From the sequence record MN850574.1: a DNA stretch of 64,000 bases. One strand, given 5' to 3'. This document shows positions 1,698 to 50,634 of the stretch, piece after piece; the first letter of the stretch is position 1; each line of letters begins with the position of its first letter. A program made the translations under genes and the position numbers. The DNA comes from Escherichia phage kaaroe. Under the pieces are notes generated by a model, which worked only from the letters and a program-made list of their open reading frames with translations, made no database searches and was not told the DNA's origin.

Positions 1698-3521
1698 ATG
1701 AGTGAGTTTCGCATTTTATCTGATCGTGAACATGTCCTTAAGCGTGCAGGAATGTATATAGGATCAACAACTTACGAAGAACATCAACGTTTCCTGTTCG
1801 GTAAATGGACAAAAATTTCATACGTTCCTGGACTGGTTAAAATCATTGATGAGATCATCGACAACTCTGTAGACGAGGCGATCCGCACTAACTTTGAATT
1901 TGCCAATGTGATTAGCGTCGATATCCAAAACAATATTGTTACTGTAACAGACAATGGTCGCGGTATTCCTCAACATATGGTTACTACCCCAGAGGGTACG
2001 CAGATTCCGCAACCTGTCGCCGCATGGACACGAACAAAAGCAGGGTCTAACTTTGATGATACCAATCGATTAACGCAAGGGATGAACGGTGTGGGGTCGT
2101 CGTTGTCAAATTTCTTTAGCGATTGGTTTACTGGTGTGACCTGTGACGGCGAAACAGAAATGACCGTTCAATGTACAAACGGTGCTGAAAATATCACATG
2201 GTCATCGAAACCATCAAAATTGAAGGGAACAAAGGTTACATTTTGCCCAGACTTCGACCACTTCGAAGGTTATATGATGGGCAACTCTGTTTTAGATATT
2301 GTTCATGATCGTCTGCAATCATTGAGCGTAATATTTCCTAAGATCACGTTTAAGTTTAATGGTAAACGTATTGTTAGTAAGTTCAAGGATTATGCTAAAC
2401 TATACAATGATGATCCGTTTGTCATTGAAGATAAAAACTTTTCACTTGCCCTAGTTCCTGCGGTCGAGGGAGAAGGTTTTAAATCAGTATCCTTTGCTAA
2501 TGGTCTGTTTACCAAAAACGGGGGAACACACGTTGATTATGTGACAGATGATCTTTGTGAAGAGATTGTAAAACGAATCAAGAAAGAATATAAGGTTGAT
2601 GTTACTAAAGCTGCGGTTAAGTCTGGATTGACCTGTATTCTTATTGTTCGTGAATTGCCTAACCTTCGTTTTGATTCACAGACAAAAGAACGATTGACTA
2701 ATCCAACTGGTGATATCAAGCGTCATATTGATCTTGATTTTAAAAAGCTGGCTAAAGTCATTGCTAAGAAAGAAAACATTATCATGCCTATTATTGCTGT
2801 AGTCCTGGCACGCAAAGAGGCAGCAGATAAAGCGGCAGCGACTAAGGCAGCAAAGGCAGCGAAACGGGCTAAGGTGGCAAAACACGTTAAAGCTAACCTT
2901 ATTGGAACTGACGCAGAAACTACCCTGTTTTTGACGGAAGGTGATTCCGCGATCAACTATCTGATCTCTGTACGTGATCAAGATTTACATGGAGGTTTCC
3001 CGTTGCGAGGCAAAACTCTTACAACGTGGGAACAACCGGAGGCAAAGATCGTTAAGAACGCCGAAATTTTTAACATCATGGCGATCACTGGCTTGCAATT
3101 TGGTGTTGATGCATTGGAAGTTATGCAATACAAAAATATTGCGATTATGACCGACGCTGATACTGACGGGATCGGGTCTATTAAACCTAGTCTGATCTCT
3201 TTCTTTGCACGTTGGCCTGAATTGTTCGAAGATGGACGAATCCGGTTTATCAAAACACCTATTATCATTGCGGAACCAAAGAAAGGTGATGATGTTCGAT
3301 GGTATTATGACCTAGAAGATTTCGAGAACGACCGAGATAATATCAAAGGTTACAACATTCGATATATCAAAGGTTTAGCATCGCTCACAGAATCAGACTA
3401 TCATCGCGTGATCAACGATCCTGTCATGGAGATCATCACGTTACCGGAAAACTATAAAGAGCTATTCGATTTGCTCTATAGTGAAGATGCAGATCAGCGC
3501 AAAATTTGGATGCAATCATAA
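1698..3521 (+). CDS. 39: DNA topoisomerase II large subunit (GyrB-like; gp39 and gp60 regions in one continuous ORF)
   Basis: 607 aa; GHKL ATPase motifs (DNSVDEAI, DNGRGIP, GMNGVGSS) and Toprim motifs (LTEGDSA, MTDADTDG); T4 gp39-like N-terminus. Confidence 0.93.
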   Translation: MSEFRILSDREHVLKRAGMYIGSTTYEEHQRFLFGKWTKISYVPGLVKIIDEIIDNSVDEAIRTNFEFANVISVDIQNNIVTVTDNGRGIPQHMVTTPEGTQIPQPVAAWTRTKAGSNFDDTNRLTQGMNGVGSSLSNFFSDWFTGVTCDGETEMTVQCTNGAENITWSSKPSKLKGTKVTFCPDFDHFEGYMMGNSVLDIVHDRLQSLSVIFPKITFKFNGKRIVSKFKDYAKLYNDDPFVIEDKNFSLALVPAVEGEGFKSVSFANGLFTKNGGTHVDYVTDDLCEEIVKRIKKEYKVDVTKAAVKSGLTCILIVRELPNLRFDSQTKERLTNPTGDIKRHIDLDFKKLAKVIAKKENIIMPIIAVVLARKEAADKAAATKAAKAAKRAKVAKHVKANLIGTDAETTLFLTEGDSAINYLISVRDQDLHGGFPLRGKTLTTWEQPEAKIVKNAEIFNIMAITGLQFGVDALEVMQYKNIAIMTDADTDGIGSIKPSLISFFARWPELFEDGRIRFIKTPIIIAEPKKGDDVRWYYDLEDFENDRDNIKGYNIRYIKGLASLTESDYHRVINDPVMEIITLPENYKELFDLLYSEDADQRKIWMQS

Positions 3522-4617: not shown

Positions 4618-6726
4618 ATGAAAATGCATATTGATAATGAAGAAGTATTTGGCAGTGACTTGAGCGGTGCGGTTGATTTTTCACTGAAAGCAAGTAGCAA
4701 GGCTTTTATGGTGCTTTCTAAGAACACTTATCAATATTGTGAACGTGCTTGCGTCCGTGAGTATTCGTGCAATGCTACCGACACTCACAAAGAAGCCGGA
4801 ACCTTAGATCGTCCGTTTGATATTCATTTACCGACTGCAATCGAACCGTATTTTTCTGTGCGTGATTATGGTACTGGTATTCCGTCTAAGAAAGAATTAG
4901 AACAACTGTTTACGGTTTACTTTGAATCAACAAAAGACCAGACTAATGATTATATCGGATCTTTTGGTTTAGGTGCGAAATCTGCTTATAGCTATACCGA
5001 CACCTTTACAATCGTAAACTATTACAATGGTCGCGCTTATGGCTTTACGGCATTTGTGCAAAACTCTATGCCGAAAATGGTGCAGATTTTCGACGAACCG
5101 ACCTATGAAGACAACGGTCTGAAAATCACTATTCCGGTGAAAGAAAAAGACATTCAGACATGGCATCGAGAAGCGCAATTTGTACTGCGTCATTTTGGGG
5201 AACACAAACCTAATATCAATGCAATCGAAATTAATTATTTCCCTAGCTTTGATAATTATTATGTGTGTAATGGGCGTGATAACGATTCCTATGTAGTATA
5301 TGCAATCATGGGTAAGATCCAGTATCCGATCCCGTATGAATATGTTCGCGGAACATGGTTAGAAGCTGTAAACCGCCAGCACCAGACCATTTACATTAAT
5401 TTTGAGTTGGGTGATCTGGACCTTATGCCATCGCGTGAAGAAGTTCACTTGTCAATTGAGACTAAAGCGAACATCGAAAAACGCATTGCAGAAATCAATG
5501 AAATGATGTTGGAAAAGGTTAAAGAAAAGATCGCCAACATTAAAACAGAGCGTAAACTTGCGCAATTTATGAGCGAGTATTCATCGACTCAACGCAATAT
5601 TATTAGCAAGATGGGTAAGATCGGACAATGGGACGATCCGGTAGCAATCTATAATAAGTTTGTTAATGCGGGTAAAGATTCGCCTAATGACGTAGAAGGT
5701 CAGGTGTATACTCTGTATCGTACTCGTCACACAATAAGTAAATTGCGCCCTGCTTTCGTTAGCAGTCAATACAACATTACGCATTTTGTATGGATGCATA
5801 AAGAAGATATTACGTGTCTTATTGATGATACCGATAAACCGAAACTGCGTGCACTGACTCTTAACGGCATGGTCCAGGAATACGGCATCAATAAAAAGGT
5901 ACTGGTGTTCCGTCAGAAAAACGAAAAACATATGGAGACTTTCGAGTACATCAAACAGTATTATGATGATTCTGAAATGACCGTGATTAAAGTGTCTGAG
6001 GCCGATGATCTGCGTGCTAAAGCAGTTAAACCGGAGAAGACCGAGCGTACACAACGTGAAGCGACTCCTAAGCTGCCTAACGTGTATATCATGGAAAAGA
6101 TTGGTGACAGTTGGCATAAAACCAGCCATCACATGAAAGCGGCAGAGATTCGCGAGTTATCAGGCTTGCACATGTTCCGCGTAGGTGATGCATTCGAAAG
6201 CCGTAGTCGTAAATCGATCCATAGTGAAAATACATTACACACGGCGCTTGACTACTTCGGGGTAACAAAGTATATTATTACTCGAAACGAGACACAAAAA
6301 TATCTCGTTGACGAACAATTGGAATGTGCGCTAGAATTTGTTCGCGGTAAGCTGGCTGGTCTGGCTAAGAAGGTTAAGACCAATCATCTGGGGTATGGCG
6401 AATATCTGGGTGTGATCACTATGTTGTTTCATGACGATGAACTAGAACGCTGTGTTCCAGAATTTATTGACAGACTGTACGGTCGTCATTATAATAAAGA
6501 GGTTTCCAAGTTACTCCTTCGTACTCGTTGGATTATGGACGCAGAAACTAAAAAGATTTGTGATGAAAAATTCACGGTAGCAAACGAACGAATTAAAGCA
6601 GTTTGTGCGAAGTTTAAAGAGAATAGCCCGTTACTGTATGATATTGTAGATAACTGGTATCGTATTCTGCATAATGACAAACGCGCACAAGACTTTATGA
6701 AACTGGTTAAGAATGTTAAATTTTAA
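4618..6726 (+). CDS. rIIA: rIIA protein (membrane-associated, GHKL ATPase-like N-terminal domain)
   Basis: 702 aa; HATPase-like motifs (DYGTGIP, GSFGLGAKSAY); rIIA-rIIB-like pair following gene 39 as in T4. Confidence 0.85.
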   Translation: MKMHIDNEEVFGSDLSGAVDFSLKASSKAFMVLSKNTYQYCERACVREYSCNATDTHKEAGTLDRPFDIHLPTAIEPYFSVRDYGTGIPSKKELEQLFTVYFESTKDQTNDYIGSFGLGAKSAYSYTDTFTIVNYYNGRAYGFTAFVQNSMPKMVQIFDEPTYEDNGLKITIPVKEKDIQTWHREAQFVLRHFGEHKPNINAIEINYFPSFDNYYVCNGRDNDSYVVYAIMGKIQYPIPYEYVRGTWLEAVNRQHQTIYINFELGDLDLMPSREEVHLSIETKANIEKRIAEINEMMLEKVKEKIANIKTERKLAQFMSEYSSTQRNIISKMGKIGQWDDPVAIYNKFVNAGKDSPNDVEGQVYTLYRTRHTISKLRPAFVSSQYNITHFVWMHKEDITCLIDDTDKPKLRALTLNGMVQEYGINKKVLVFRQKNEKHMETFEYIKQYYDDSEMTVIKVSEADDLRAKAVKPEKTERTQREATPKLPNVYIMEKIGDSWHKTSHHMKAAEIRELSGLHMFRVGDAFESRSRKSIHSENTLHTALDYFGVTKYIITRNETQKYLVDEQLECALEFVRGKLAGLAKKVKTNHLGYGEYLGVITMLFHDDELERCVPEFIDRLYGRHYNKEVSKLLLRTRWIMDAETKKICDEKFTVANERIKAVCAKFKENSPLLYDIVDNWYRILHNDKRAQDFMKLVKNVKF

Positions 6727-6737
6727 GAGGTGATATT

Positions 6738-6869
6738 ATGACTAAACTGACCGCTATCCAGAAAGAAACCATCCGTAAACAATACGCTCGCGGCTTGACT
6801 AAAGGCGAACTGGCACGAATCTATAATGTATCAGACCGCACAATCCGCAAGGTTGTCGAAGCAAAATAA
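6738..6869 (+). CDS. small helix-turn-helix protein (43 aa)
   Basis: MTKLTAIQKETIRKQYARGLTKGELARIYNVSDRTIRKVVEAK; classic HTH pattern; below ORF-track size cutoff. Confidence 0.5.
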   Translation: MTKLTAIQKETIRKQYARGLTKGELARIYNVSDRTIRKVVEAK

Positions 6870-6881
6870 TTCTGGTATAAT
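6853..6881 (+). promoter_or_regulatory. candidate sigma70 promoter for rIIB
   Basis: TTGTCG, 17-nt spacer, TATAAT, followed by a short hairpin at about 6892-6908. Confidence 0.4.
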
Positions 6882-6931
6882 GATGTGAATCGGGCGGCGA
6901 TAGTCGCCCAACTAATAGAGGAATGAATACT

Positions 6932-7924
6932 ATGACTAAAGCAAAAATCACCGTCTCTGACCGTAACGTTCAATGCCTGGATTCTGAAAAACAAATCAAA
7001 CTGGCTAAACAGTGGGGCGAAGGTAAGTTTACTACCCGCGAAGCACTTGCGGCAGCATTTGGGGTATCTCGTCGTACTGCCTCCCGTGTATTACTGATTC
7101 AGAAAGACGCAGTAGCGGAAGGTCGCAAGGCACTAGAAAAACGTAAAGCACGCCGTAAAACCAGTAAAGGAAAAGGCGGTGAACGCGCAAAAAAGCCCGT
7201 GACTACTTCCTCAAAAATCGTAGCAATAGCCTCAACTAAGTTTATTACTATTACATGTGGTGACATTGTTTATACTGCTGATCCATCGCATGTTAACTTT
7301 AATGAAGCACTGGAAGCGATTAAACATAATGATTTCATCAAAGCTATTACGCTGATTGACATTAAGAAAGCGGTTGAAGTATATTATCACGGCGCTTTCC
7401 GTATCGAAAATGGTATTGTGTATTATCATAATATTGTTCTTGATAATAATCTGACTCGTCGAGTTGTGGAGTCGATTAAAGAGAATAAGCCATATACGCA
7501 CTATCTGAACTTCTTTGAGAAGTGCAAGAAGAATCCTAGCCGTAAGGCGGTAGATCGTCTGTTTGACTTCTTAGAGCACAACGACATTGAGATCGGGGAA
7601 GATGGTTGTTTCTATGCATGGAAACGTGTTGATGTTGATTATAAAGATTTCTTTACGCATACGTTTGATAATAGCCCAGGGCGCACGGTTAAAATGAAGC
7701 GTAAAGACGTGGACCCAGATGATGATCGCACTTGCTCTAATGGCCTCCACGTTGCAGCGAAACACTATATTCCTCACTATGGCGGTGGACGAGGCCGAAT
7801 CATTAAATGCAAAGTTGATCCGCGTCACGTTGTAAGTATCCCGAAAGATTATGCGAATGCCAAAATGCGCTGCCATCGTTACTATGTGGTTGAAGATGTA
7901 ACCGAAGGTTTTAGCCATTACTAA
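6932..7924 (+). CDS. rIIB: rIIB protein
   Basis: Internal ATG 11 nt after AGAGGA SD; ~330 aa; directly downstream of rIIA. Confidence 0.8.
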   Translation: MTKAKITVSDRNVQCLDSEKQIKLAKQWGEGKFTTREALAAAFGVSRRTASRVLLIQKDAVAEGRKALEKRKARRKTSKGKGGERAKKPVTTSSKIVAIASTKFITITCGDIVYTADPSHVNFNEALEAIKHNDFIKAITLIDIKKAVEVYYHGAFRIENGIVYYHNIVLDNNLTRRVVESIKENKPYTHYLNFFEKCKKNPSRKAVDRLFDFLEHNDIEIGEDGCFYAWKRVDVDYKDFFTHTFDNSPGRTVKMKRKDVDPDDDRTCSNGLHVAAKHYIPHYGGGRGRIIKCKVDPRHVVSIPKDYANAKMRCHRYYVVEDVTEGFSHY

Positions 7925-8606: not shown

Positions 8607-8969
8607 ATGCTAGGTCATTCTAAAATAGAAGATTGCTCATTCAGAGCAATGAAAGATGATTTTTCGGTCCTGTACGCGTCTATCCGAGAGTTGTTTGTAG
8701 ATTTTAAGCAATTCAGAGAATACAAAGGCGTTAAGATGCGGGAGTGGGTATTCTGGCCTTTCTATATCATTACTCTGTTTTCTATGGTATTTTGTTTTGT
8801 CGGGATCACTATCGCTAGTTTTGTCACTTGCGTTTTCCTGATTATCAGGTGTATCATGTTTGCTTTGATTGCTGCCCCGTTTATTGTGTCAATCCTTCCG
8901 TTAAAATGGCTATTGGATTGGGCTGATAAATCTGATAAAGTAAAGAATGTGATTTGTAAGCGTGTATGA
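8607..8969 (+). CDS. predicted integral membrane protein (120 aa)
   Basis: Long hydrophobic stretches (WVFWPFYIITLFSMVF..., FALIAAPFIVSILPL). Confidence 0.5.
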   Translation: MLGHSKIEDCSFRAMKDDFSVLYASIRELFVDFKQFREYKGVKMREWVFWPFYIITLFSMVFCFVGITIASFVTCVFLIIRCIMFALIAAPFIVSILPLKWLLDWADKSDKVKNVICKRV

Positions 8970-8976
8970 GGTGAAG

Positions 8977-10323
8977 ATGAATAAATCAGTTACTTACCGC
9001 AGCCTTGAAAGCATTGTACATAATGAAGCTAAGGAATATGCGATCTATTCTGCCGAGGAACGCGGGATTCCTCAATTAGTGGATGGGCTTAAACCAGTGC
9101 AACGCTTTGTTATGGAGTGCGCACTTCAAAAGAGTAAAGGTGACCGTAAGAAATTCCGTAAGATGGCAGATATTGGATCTGGTGTTGCTGAGTTGGGGTA
9201 TCACCACGGCGAAACTAATGCCGTAGAAGCCGGATCACTCATGGCGAATACATGGAGCAATAATACTCCACTGCTTGACGGTCAAGGTAACTTCGGATCG
9301 CGTTTAGTCCAGAAAGCAGGTGCGGCACGTTATATCTTTGCTCGCGTGCATGAAAACTTCTTTAAAATCTATAAAGATATGAATTGCGCACCTAAGCACG
9401 AAGATCTGGAACACATCCCGCCAGCGTTCTACTTGCCAGTTGTGCCAATGGTATTGGCTAACGGTATTAGTGGTATTGCTACAGGGTATAAAACTGACAT
9501 TTTACCGCATTCACTGGAAAGCCTTATTGAATGCACAGAGCTAGCACTTGCCGGAAAACTGGATAAAGAACCTAGTGTTCAATTCCCGAAATTCACGGGT
9601 AAAGTTATCCCGCGAGATGATCGCGATGGTGTGATTCTTGAGGGTACATATGAACTAAACGGCAAGACTAAACTGACAATATCAGAAGTTCCTTATAAGT
9701 TCGACCGTGAAGAATATGTAGCGGTACTGGATGCACTGGAAGAAAAAGATCTGATTGTATCGTATAATGACCGTTGCTCTAAGGACGGATTCAGATTTGA
9801 AGTAACACTGAAACGCGATTATTTCAAAAGCGAAGATGAATCCGCTCGACATGAGCAAATCATGAAGGATTTTAAACTAACGCAGTTAGTAGCCCAGAAT
9901 ATCGTAGTAGTTAACGAACGTGGTTTAGTAGAAGTATTCGAGAAAGCGAGCGATCTGATCCGTCGATTCGTCGAAATCCGATTAGGGTATGTCGATAAAC
10001 GCATTGAATTGATGCAAGCGGAAACGCTGGAAGCATACAATTATGCAATGGCTAAAGCCGAATTTATCGATCGCGTAATTAAGGGCGAAATCGAGCTACA
10101 GGGCAAGAAAAAGGCCGAGGTAATGCAATCCATCAATGGACATGAAAAACTGCGTCCATACGCCGATAAGCTAGTTTCTATGCCATTGTATAGCGTTACT
10201 CAAGAAGAGTATGATCGACTGGTCAAAGATGCCGATAAACATCATAGTGAATATGAGTATTGGACAAAGACGACCGCAATGAAGGAATATAAGAAAGATC
10301 TTAAAGAACTTAAGAAGGGTTGA
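8977..10323 (+). CDS. 52: DNA topoisomerase II medium subunit (GyrA-like)
   Basis: ATG after GAGGTG SD; GLKPVQRFV and active-site AARY motifs; T4 gp52-like. Confidence 0.9.
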   Translation: MNKSVTYRSLESIVHNEAKEYAIYSAEERGIPQLVDGLKPVQRFVMECALQKSKGDRKKFRKMADIGSGVAELGYHHGETNAVEAGSLMANTWSNNTPLLDGQGNFGSRLVQKAGAARYIFARVHENFFKIYKDMNCAPKHEDLEHIPPAFYLPVVPMVLANGISGIATGYKTDILPHSLESLIECTELALAGKLDKEPSVQFPKFTGKVIPRDDRDGVILEGTYELNGKTKLTISEVPYKFDREEYVAVLDALEEKDLIVSYNDRCSKDGFRFEVTLKRDYFKSEDESARHEQIMKDFKLTQLVAQNIVVVNERGLVEVFEKASDLIRRFVEIRLGYVDKRIELMQAETLEAYNYAMAKAEFIDRVIKGEIELQGKKKAEVMQSINGHEKLRPYADKLVSMPLYSVTQEEYDRLVKDADKHHSEYEYWTKTTAMKEYKKDLKELKKG

Positions 10324-50599: not shown

Positions 50600-50634
50600 T
50601 TGACATAAGATCGGGTGTATAGCATAATACACCC
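50600..50634 (+). promoter_or_regulatory. PeSL-like early promoter cassette
   Basis: TTGACA; GGGTGTATAGCATAATACACCC palindrome with CATAAT; conserved leader. Confidence 0.6.

Follow-up and report, generated by a model that had tools for sequence, protein, structure and literature searches.

The rIIA and rIIB genes of T4-type phages form a founding locus of molecular genetics. In phage T4, rIIB has its own, MotA-dependent middle promoters in distal rIIA, and no cistron intervenes between the two genes. Here we describe the rII locus in a 64,000-nucleotide (nt) stretch of Escherichia phage kaaroe (sequence record MN850574.1; hereafter the window), in which a 43-codon open reading frame (ORF), which we call the mini-gene, lies between rIIA and rIIB and encodes a predicted helix-turn-helix (HTH) protein. 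Our comparisons suggest that this mini-gene is a third cistron of the rII locus and that its product is related to the N-terminal module of rIIB.

The rII proteins are topical again: RIIAB overcomes RexAB, and RIIB triggers a bacterial gasdermin/CARD defence (PMC10312443). On the strength of its HTH, rIIB has also been called a specific transcription factor (Iyer et al. 2021, PMC7824862). The phages RB49 and phi1 contain elements known as PeSLs, in which a near-consensus sigma70 promoter and a G(n)-loop-C(n) stem-loop are found between an upstream stop codon and a downstream Shine-Dalgarno sequence (Arbiol et al. 2010, PMC2839356). Five PeSL subclasses are distinguished by the position of the stem-loop, including "overlapping the -10" and "downstream of the -10"; terminator-like and promoter activities were shown for the tested PeSLs 211/210 and 206/205, and the stem-loop was speculated to be the target of a specific DNA-binding protein (PMC2839356). 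PeSLs occur in the T4/PST and KVP40/nt-1 groups as well (Comeau et al. 2014, PMC4122927). Neither of the PeSL papers (PMC2839356, PMC4122927) mentions rIIA or rIIB in its main text. In the literature that we searched, there was no mention of a third rII cistron as a free-standing paralogue of the rIIB N-terminal module, of a mini-gene as the most conserved gene of the rII locus across a deep clade, or of amplification of the module in relatives.

Results

A putative third cistron between rIIA and rIIB

The window is a Krischvirus (RB49-like) T4-type genome, and a 901-nt query from the junction matched 58 phage records at 95-99.6% identity, all of them RB49-like coliphages. A protein search added four more clusters of 43-residue homologues, which are 86%, 86%, 77% and 69% identical and are all encoded between rIIA and rIIB. 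These clusters come from metagenomic contigs that we designate L003 (ENA contig ERZ27260015 k141_60519), L004/L005, L092 and L093/L094, three of which derive from near-consecutive SRA accessions (SRR8048111, SRR8048117 and SRR8048119).

An earlier note on this DNA, made from its letters alone, had described a small HTH gene inserted between two genes that are nearly contiguous in T4, together with a TTGTCG-17-TATAAT promoter and a hairpin ahead of rIIB. We found the ORF, the promoter and the hairpin each in place, and the contrast with T4-type phages outside the clade is borne out by the size of the rIIA-rIIB gap, which is ~200 nt in Krischvirus and its relatives and has a median of 11 nt (range -8 to 164) at 34 other T4-type loci. 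The mini-gene begins 11 nt past the rIIA stop codon, an arrangement that is the same in L003, L004, L092 and L093. It is not fused to rIIB: its own stop codon is followed by a 62-nt spacer that holds the promoter and the hairpin. These comparisons indicate that the rII locus of the RB49/Krischvirus clade and its metagenomic relatives comprises three cistrons, namely rIIA, the HTH mini-gene and rIIB.

Conservation of the ORF agrees with its reading in the note as a small gene. All 58 matching Krischvirus records carry it intact, at 98-100% identity, and a comparison of rIIA-rIIB junctions across T4-type phages shows that its frame is conserved in five lineages. Its length is exactly 43 codons in every lineage, with compensating indels in L003. 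Nei-Gojobori comparisons among the five lineages gave ratios of non-synonymous to synonymous change (dN/dS) of 0.02-0.29 and proportions of synonymous differences (pS) of 0.47-0.81, so that synonymous sites are near saturation. Between L092 and L093, the mini-gene has accumulated 14.5 synonymous and 1.5 non-synonymous changes, and between lineages a serine codon switches from TCA to AGC with the amino acid (aa) unchanged. The Shine-Dalgarno sequence, (T)GAGGTGA, is kept in L004, L092 and L093, and L003 has GGTGAT. Judged from these substitution patterns, the mini-gene is a genuine, strongly conserved gene under purifying selection. Across the lineages its product is 69-86% identical, with the final 23 residues nearly invariant, as compared with 36-40% for rIIA and 54-65% for rIIB. 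The mini-gene thus appears to be the most conserved gene of the rII locus across this deep clade, and its presence in lineages with such diverged rIIA proteins suggests that it is old.

The mini-protein is basic, with 11 Lys/Arg as against 4 Asp/Glu residues and a net charge of +7. An AlphaFold model built from a six-sequence alignment is a three-helix bundle (mean pLDDT 90.7) with helices at residues 6-18, 22-28 and 33-41. The segment that had been singled out as an HTH, residues 19-40, corresponds to helix 2, the turn and helix 3 of this model. When the model was compared with the PDB using Foldseek, the top neighbours were all DNA-binding HTH domains: the HTH of the IstA transposase in a DNA complex (TMq 0.79, root-mean-square deviation 1.0 Å), followed by gamma-delta resolvase, NarL/LuxR-type domains and CENP-B. 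No Foldseek E-value fell below 0.001, because the domain is so small. The sole Pfam HTH model to pass its threshold was CENP-B_N (PF04218; 26.0 bits, cut-off 21.2, E=7e-6), and other HTH models matched just under theirs; HTH matches were obtained with PHROG profiles as well. The CENP-B_N match shows only a psq/homeodomain-like HTH and nothing narrower. We take the mini-protein, as modelled, to be a basic three-helix HTH. A 32-aa representative protein (P0039, MTKLTAIQKETIRFHFSRGLTKCDVSRMYNFS) has the same first 13 residues as the mini-protein and has diverged in the rest, perhaps because the copy was truncated or had degenerated in one of the assemblies.

Both the ORF and the promoter were already known to exist, and it is their interpretation that is new. 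Public records name the ORF a hypothetical protein (RB49p274, GEC-3S BN201_0276, TB34TRB_139), with no family, function or link to rIIB, and in PHROGs it constitutes its own 43-residue family of unknown function, phrog_15481. The GEC-3S record annotates exactly the same -35/-10 pair as a promoter.

Relation to the N-terminal module of rIIB

We searched 50,697 phage genomes with the peptide using tblastn, and the best non-self matches were to the first ~40 residues of rIIB in other T4-type genera. These matches extend over several hundred records and include Jiaodavirus (52.5% over 40 aa), Winklervirus X20, Karamvirus CC31, Dhakavirus Bp7 and Slopekvirus. At the rIIB loci of T4, X20, CC31, Bp7, Jiaodavirus, Slopekvirus and the window, each rIIB carries one N-terminal HTH module of ~45 residues. 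The alignment of the free module with the rIIB module covers both over their full length, the free module finishing where the rIIB linker starts, and its identity to Tevenvirinae modules is 39-49%. The wording "inserted" in the note, which suggests a foreign gene, does not suit these results, in which the mini-gene is closest to the N-terminal HTH modules of rIIB proteins. On this comparison, we prefer to describe it as an additional copy of a rIIB domain that stands alone.

Profile comparisons gave a similar picture. With a hidden Markov model (HMM) made from five non-Krischvirus rIIB N-termini, the mini-protein was matched at E=1e-12, as against 1e-6 for the resident module of rIIB. With an HMM of 50 rIIB N-termini (rIIB-N), the free family scored 46.7-50.2 bits as compared with 30-35 bits for the resident Krischvirus module, and was comparable to the extra modules of the L003 rIIB (43-54 bits); when the top matches of the ORF family in a library of 1.84 billion proteins were scored in this way, the best protein from outside the family reached 43.9 bits. 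Alignment of the free family with the rIIB-N profile by hhalign gave a probability of 99.0 and E=2.3e-18. The PHROG 609 (RIIB) profile matches the mini-protein weakly, at its N-terminal positions. No relative with a solved structure came up when rIIB was searched by sequence against the PDB.

The mini-gene thus has in common with the T4-type rIIB N-terminal module (T4 rIIB residues ~4-46; PHROG 609) its HTH family, its boundaries and its place directly 3' of rIIA. It differs in having no C-terminal domain, in having its own start, stop and ribosome-binding site, in the promoter and stem-loop cassette that separates it from rIIB, and in coexisting with a second, diverged module that is fused to rIIB. 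A programmed frameshift or read-through that would fuse the ORF to rIIB was rejected, since stop codons lie between the two and their frame offset varies by lineage (2, 1, 2, 0). Among 80 rIIB loci from IMG/VR, a free copy was found in the Krischvirus group only, and all other detectable modules were fused to rIIB.

In one lineage of the clade the module has multiplied in tandem and is thus prone to this kind of amplification. The 459-aa rIIB of L003 (L003:4685-6064) has three modules (residues 6-45, 61-103 and 147-188) ahead of the conserved C-terminal domain, and L003 also has the free 43-aa module upstream. A separate observation concerns a Karamvirus-like IMG/VR contig (L060:21-975; 2700989062), where a frameshift immediately 3' of the HTH module apparently divides rIIB in two: an 86-aa ORF holds the module, and the C-terminal domain is encoded by a 271-aa ORF in a different frame. 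The interruption may be natural, may mark a pseudogene or may stem from a sequencing error.

The junction promoter and hairpin

A plausible sigma70-type promoter and a hairpin were both found ahead of rIIB. The note had placed the promoter in the 3' half of the ORF, which is correct for the -35 hexamer, in codons 39-41, and for part of the spacer; the -10 hexamer, however, is downstream of the ORF and begins 7 nt past the stop codon. The -10 context, TTCTGGTATAAT, is identical in L003, and L004 and L093 have TTGACA-17/18-TA(C/T)AAT at the corresponding place; a good junction promoter is present in four of the five lineages. A GC-rich hairpin of 7-10 bp is present in all five, with five different stem sequences, and the folded intergenic spacers have minimum free energies of -14 to -18 kcal/mol. 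An Rfam scan of positions 6400-7100 found no family. The layout takes two forms. In the window and L003, the ORF contains the -35 hexamer, its stop codon lies in the promoter spacer and the stem-loop is downstream of the -10 hexamer (by 10 nt in the window), while in L004 and L093 the stop codon precedes the -35 hexamer and the loop of the hairpin encloses the -10.

Promoter-like hexamer pairs alone were not significantly enriched (25 as against 14.8 expected in 5.5 kb). Composites of a promoter with a GC hairpin numbered 20 on the + strand of the window and 0 on the - strand, as against a shuffle mean of 0.6, and the junction element is among the 20. L003 has seven PeSL-like composites on its + strand. 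These scans suggest that the junction promoter and hairpin are one copy of a genome-wide PeSL cassette and are not special to the mini-gene. The junction has in common with described PeSLs a sigma70-like promoter, a stem-loop, a Shine-Dalgarno sequence and start codon downstream, and membership of a co-oriented genomic family; by stem-loop position, the window falls in the "downstream of the -10" subclass and L004 and L093 in the "overlapping the -10" subclass. It differs from them in that its -35 hexamer is TTGTCG rather than TTGACA and lies, in the window, inside coding sequence rather than in an AT-rich spacer, and in that the locus it occupies is conserved, not hyperplastic. By analogy with other PeSLs, the junction would have promoter and terminator functions. 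Several of the PeSL-like stems in the window are near-identical to each other (AGGGGATC...GATCCCCT; GGG(A/G)GTAG...), and one, GGGTGTATAGCATAATACACCC (50613-50634), recurs unchanged in the distant contig L003 (8881-8902).

Two simple roles for the hairpin were considered and rejected. It does not read as an intrinsic terminator, as it is followed by AACTAATAGAGG, with no U-tract and no terminator-like call, and the same holds in the four other lineages. Nor can it serve generally as a stabiliser of the 5' leader, because the hairpin of L004 and L093 encloses the -10 hexamer. It would consequently be absent from transcripts of the junction promoter in these two lineages, and its conserved role should therefore lie elsewhere, either in read-through transcripts (attenuation or 3'-end protection) or at the level of DNA.

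A perfect-consensus candidate promoter is located in the 3' end of rIIA in the window. Near-consensus promoters are found at -223 to -271 from the mini-gene in L092, L004 and L093/L094, and the nearest candidates in L003 are at -331 and -403. The candidate in the window is not in the 2006 list of RB49 early promoters (Nolan et al.). This arrangement suggests a short transcription unit that starts from the promoter in rIIA, spans the mini-gene and ends at the stem-loop. In the model of expression that we propose, mini-gene transcripts would start upstream of rIIA and probably also at the consensus promoter in its 3' end, and the mini-gene would be translated from its own strong ribosome-binding site, the peptide being made early, with or just after rIIA. 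The GC stem-loop would attenuate or end read-through transcripts, or protect their 3' end, and the sigma70-type junction promoter would restart transcription for rIIB. Together, the stem-loop and the junction promoter may uncouple the dosage of rIIB from that of rIIA and the mini-gene. In T4, rIIB can be transcribed independently of rIIA from promoters near the cistron divide, and the same would hold for the window. The mechanism would not be the same, since T4 uses MotA and RB49 is reported to be without motA.

Feature coordinates and neighbouring genes

The features of the junction and the PeSL-like composites of the window are collected in Table 1. We most likely place the rIIB start at ATG 6932, as in GEC-3S, rather than at ATG 6923 of a mechanical ORF list, because the latter leaves no spacing between the Shine-Dalgarno site and the ATG.

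Table 1. Positions of rII-locus features and PeSL-like composites in the window
Feature	Position	Strand	Remarks
rIIA, 702 aa	4618..6726	+	ORF list; named rIIA in matching Krischvirus records; weak GHKL ATPase match
Perfect-consensus sigma70-like promoter TTGACA-17-TATAAT in rIIA 3' end	6467..6495	+	271 nt upstream of mini-gene ATG; candidate promoter
rIIA stop codon TAA	6724-6726	+	mini-gene Shine-Dalgarno sequence adjoins
Mini-gene Shine-Dalgarno sequence GAGGTGA	6727-6733	+	4 nt ahead of ATG
Mini-gene ORF, 43 aa, MTKLTAIQKETIRKQYARGLTKGELARIYNVSDRTIRKVVEAK	6738..6869	+	RB49p274 / BN201_0276 / phrog_15481; stop codon 6867-6869
Sigma70-type promoter TTGTCG-17-TATAAT	-35 6853-6858, -10 6876-6881	+	TGn extended -10, 6873-6875; 10/12 matches; predicted start ~6888
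GC-rich stem-loop GGGCGGC-GATA-GTCGCCC	6892-6909	+	7 bp, 6 G-C; no U-tract
rIIB Shine-Dalgarno sequence AGAGGA	6917-6922	+	9 nt ahead of ATG 6932
rIIB, 330 aa from annotated start	6932..7924	+	phrog_609 RIIB match, 3e-106
Resident N-terminal HTH module of rIIB (NVQCLDSEKQIKLAKQWGEGKFTTREALAAAFGVSRRTASRVLL)	6965..7093	+	diverged mini-gene paralogue; rIIB-N profile hmmsearch E=1e-6, 30-35 bits
PeSL-like composites, -35 positions	1608, 3525, 3894, 4509, 6853, 12570, 36376, 38920, 39201, 39426	+	window scan
PeSL-like composites, -35 positions, continued	47283, 47677, 48219, 48803, 50600, 52082, 52326, 52913, 54636, 54885	+	window scan

In Krischvirus proper, the mini-gene (6738-6746) and rIIB (6932-6940) both start with ATGACTAAA (Met-Thr-Lys) behind an AGAGG Shine-Dalgarno core. 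The relatives do not have this common start, their proteins beginning with MAK, MSK or MK and MPR or MSV, respectively. The likeness of the two starts may be a coincidence or the result of local gene conversion.

Genes for topoisomerase II flank the rII locus of the window. Upstream is a gene 60+39 fusion (607 aa, 1698-3521), and gene 52 (453 aa, 8962-10323) is separated from rIIB by just three small ORFs; in T4, gene 52 is much farther from rIIB. Two other T4-type contigs from IMG/VR also have an enlarged rIIA-rIIB junction with a different tiny ORF (L071:2858-2959 and L053:2849-2968). It encodes a hydrophobic, transmembrane-like peptide of 33-39 aa (MMPVSFIVVSAVVAITLILAIVILYVWWLYEFK; MSIIEIYVAVTLGLTGIGVLVWPFIEFYTTLFIGSRHAK), and in L071 a T4-early-like promoter lies 3' of it. 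Judged from these junctions, the rIIA/rIIB cistron divide seems to be a recurrent insertion point.

Discussion

On balance, we consider it probable that the mini-gene is a functional early gene that encodes a free HTH of the rIIB N-terminal type, likely a duplicate of the rIIB 5' end, that its expression is separated from that of rIIB by a PeSL, and that its product is a DNA-binding accessory or modulator of rIIA/rIIB. From its fold and family, the peptide would bind nucleic acid, most likely DNA, and as an accessory subunit or modulator it may supply in trans an ancestral DNA contact of the rIIB type. In T4, rIIA and rIIB are found in DNA-membrane complexes, and the start of the B cistron is said to tolerate gross alteration, as in the r1589 fusion and the frameshift region of Crick et al. 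Both of these properties fit an N-terminal module that is separable and directed at DNA.

Several observations weigh against this proposal. The free module is just 20-33% identical to the resident rIIB module of the same phage, and BLASTP of the mini-protein against its own rIIB returned no match (E=26), because the resident module is too diverged for the relation to be visible other than by profiles. Any duplication would thus be ancient and is not provable. Moreover, the HTH family is broad: the free-family profile scores the tails of certain homing endonucleases at 40-49 bits as against 37.8 for the best rIIB N-terminus, and hhalign gives E=9.5e-24 with these tails as against 2e-18 with rIIB-N. 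As for expression, the junction of L092 is without a good -10 hexamer, no PeSL-like motif of the window has a weaker -35 hexamer than the junction, and the 51 RB49 early promoters predicted by Nolan et al. 2006 do not include the junction promoter. Finally, no dimerisation element is evident within the 43 residues of the mini-protein, and a lone HTH monomer of this size would be a weak DNA binder unless it forms an oligomer or has a partner.

The question of origin rests on domains of ~40 residues. Scanning 1.84 billion representative proteins with the free-family profile in HMMER, we obtained 304 matches at E≤0.001, which were led by HTH proteins with 4-7 tandem copies, HNH homing endonucleases with a single copy at their C-terminus (P0024, P0042, P0100 and P0108) and stand-alone proteins of 49-60 residues. 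The tails and the tandem-copy proteins belong to the same HTH family as the mini-protein, with the pattern "KLT..Q..IR..Y..G.T..LA..Y.VS..TI", and rIIB N-termini and endonuclease tails are homologous to each other (E=3e-14). The three groups, namely rIIB N-termini, free ORFs and endonuclease tails, form one family, and descent from rIIB is not proved by sequence alone. A separate observation from the scan is that many unrelated proteins (P0006-P0023) consist of 4-7 tandem copies of the same short HTH, some of them fused to GIY-YIG- or HNH-type nuclease domains, and this repeat architecture is apparently large and little described.

An alternative is that the mini-gene descends, as an exapted remnant or by capture, from a free-standing HNH homing endonuclease formerly located between rIIA and rIIB, of which it would represent the C-terminal HTH tail. 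Free-standing homing endonuclease genes often insert between conserved genes of T4-type phages, the signature "KLT..Q...IR..YA.G.T" is common to the ORF and the tails (~58% identity by eye for P0024), and the profile scores given above place the tails ahead of rIIB. We nevertheless consider such a capture unlikely. The tails were picked out as the extremes of a huge library; in the 50,697 phage genomes, rIIB N-termini rather than endonucleases match best, and the rIIB-N profile gives the ORF 47-50 bits and the tails 24-28 bits. Endonucleases of the P0024 type, present in ~2,040 phage records, showed no association with the rII loci of T4-type phages. The mini-protein has no nuclease domain, a Pfam scan of it found no HNH match, and the 11 nt ahead of the ORF leave no room for a nuclease remnant, the junction being tight in all five lineages. 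The ends of the ORF also match those of the rIIB module on both sides, and its position and the tandem amplification in the L003 rIIB fit a local duplication. For these reasons, duplication of the rIIB 5' end, with the upstream copy becoming a separate cistron, is the most likely origin of the mini-gene. The identity of 20-33% led us to reject a recent tandem duplication of the resident module. The recognition helix reads DRTIRKVV in the mini-protein and RRTASRVLL in the rIIB-fused module, and the free copy may have kept the canonical helix while the fused module diverged, as in subfunctionalisation after duplication.

As to function, the peptide might instead be a transcriptional regulator or autoregulator, with the inverted repeat of the junction or the PeSL stem-loops as its operator, that throttles transcription of rIIB or of early PeSLs by binding to the arms of the repeat on either side of the -10 hexamer or past it. 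The mini-gene sits directly on the rIIB promoter, the arms of the inverted repeat in L004 and L093 bracket the -10 hexamer in a typical operator geometry, and a CGTCC/GGACG core is present in the arms of L004, L092 and L093. The suggestion of Arbiol et al. that a specific DNA-binding protein targets the conserved PeSL stem-loop, and the treatment of rIIB as a specific transcription factor by Iyer et al. 2021, point in the same direction. The stems, however, vary by lineage (GGGCGGC, GCGCCTC, ACGTCCTGA and others) while the recognition helix is invariant, which argues against the stem as a specific operator. In addition, PeSLs are present in the T4/PST and KVP40/nt-1 groups, whereas the free module was not found outside the clade among the 80 IMG/VR loci, and the mini-protein shows no evident means of dimerising. 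We regard a dedicated regulator as distinctly unlikely.

More speculative still is a role for the mini-protein as a dedicated trans-acting third component of rII counter-defence, which might be a DNA anchor, a decoy or a recogniser of PeSL or -35 sequences. Its position, its fold and its extreme conservation would suit such a component, which we see as a long shot. If it were a decoy, it would mask the N-terminal module of rIIB from host sensors, RIIB being the trigger of the gasdermin/CARD system and necessary against RexAB; if it were a recogniser, it would be the protein long postulated to read PeSL stem-loops or sigma70-type -35 elements, and thus a competitor resembling sigma region 4 that helps to switch off early promoters or promotes PeSL recombination.

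That the ORF is untranslated and owes its conservation to overlapping DNA or RNA signals (promoter, hairpin and rIIB leader) is scarcely credible and is effectively refuted by the dN/dS results, since, for all that the ORF is tiny, overlaps the -35 hexamer with its final codons and is annotated only as a hypothetical protein, synonymous changes overwhelmingly dominate along its entire length (as between L092 and L093 and in the serine codon switch), every lineage has 43 codons despite the indels of L003, the Shine-Dalgarno site is conserved and the fold is predicted with confidence.

With rIIB, we return to the reading of the mini-gene as a free module of the rIIB type. Interest in the rII proteins has been renewed by the mechanism by which RIIAB acts against RexAB and by the role of RIIB as a trigger of gasdermin/CARD defence, and an entire clade in which the HTH of the rIIB type is a separate cistron, more conserved than rIIA or rIIB, would amount to a natural dissection of rIIB. 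It suggests an independent function for the HTH module, which would also be able to act in trans and lend itself to study as a peptide of 43 residues. The locus may also be an example of domain fission, in which a PeSL cassette at a domain boundary turns a duplicated domain into a separately regulated gene. For annotation, a hypothetical protein in >50 therapeutic-phage genomes would become an interpretable gene.

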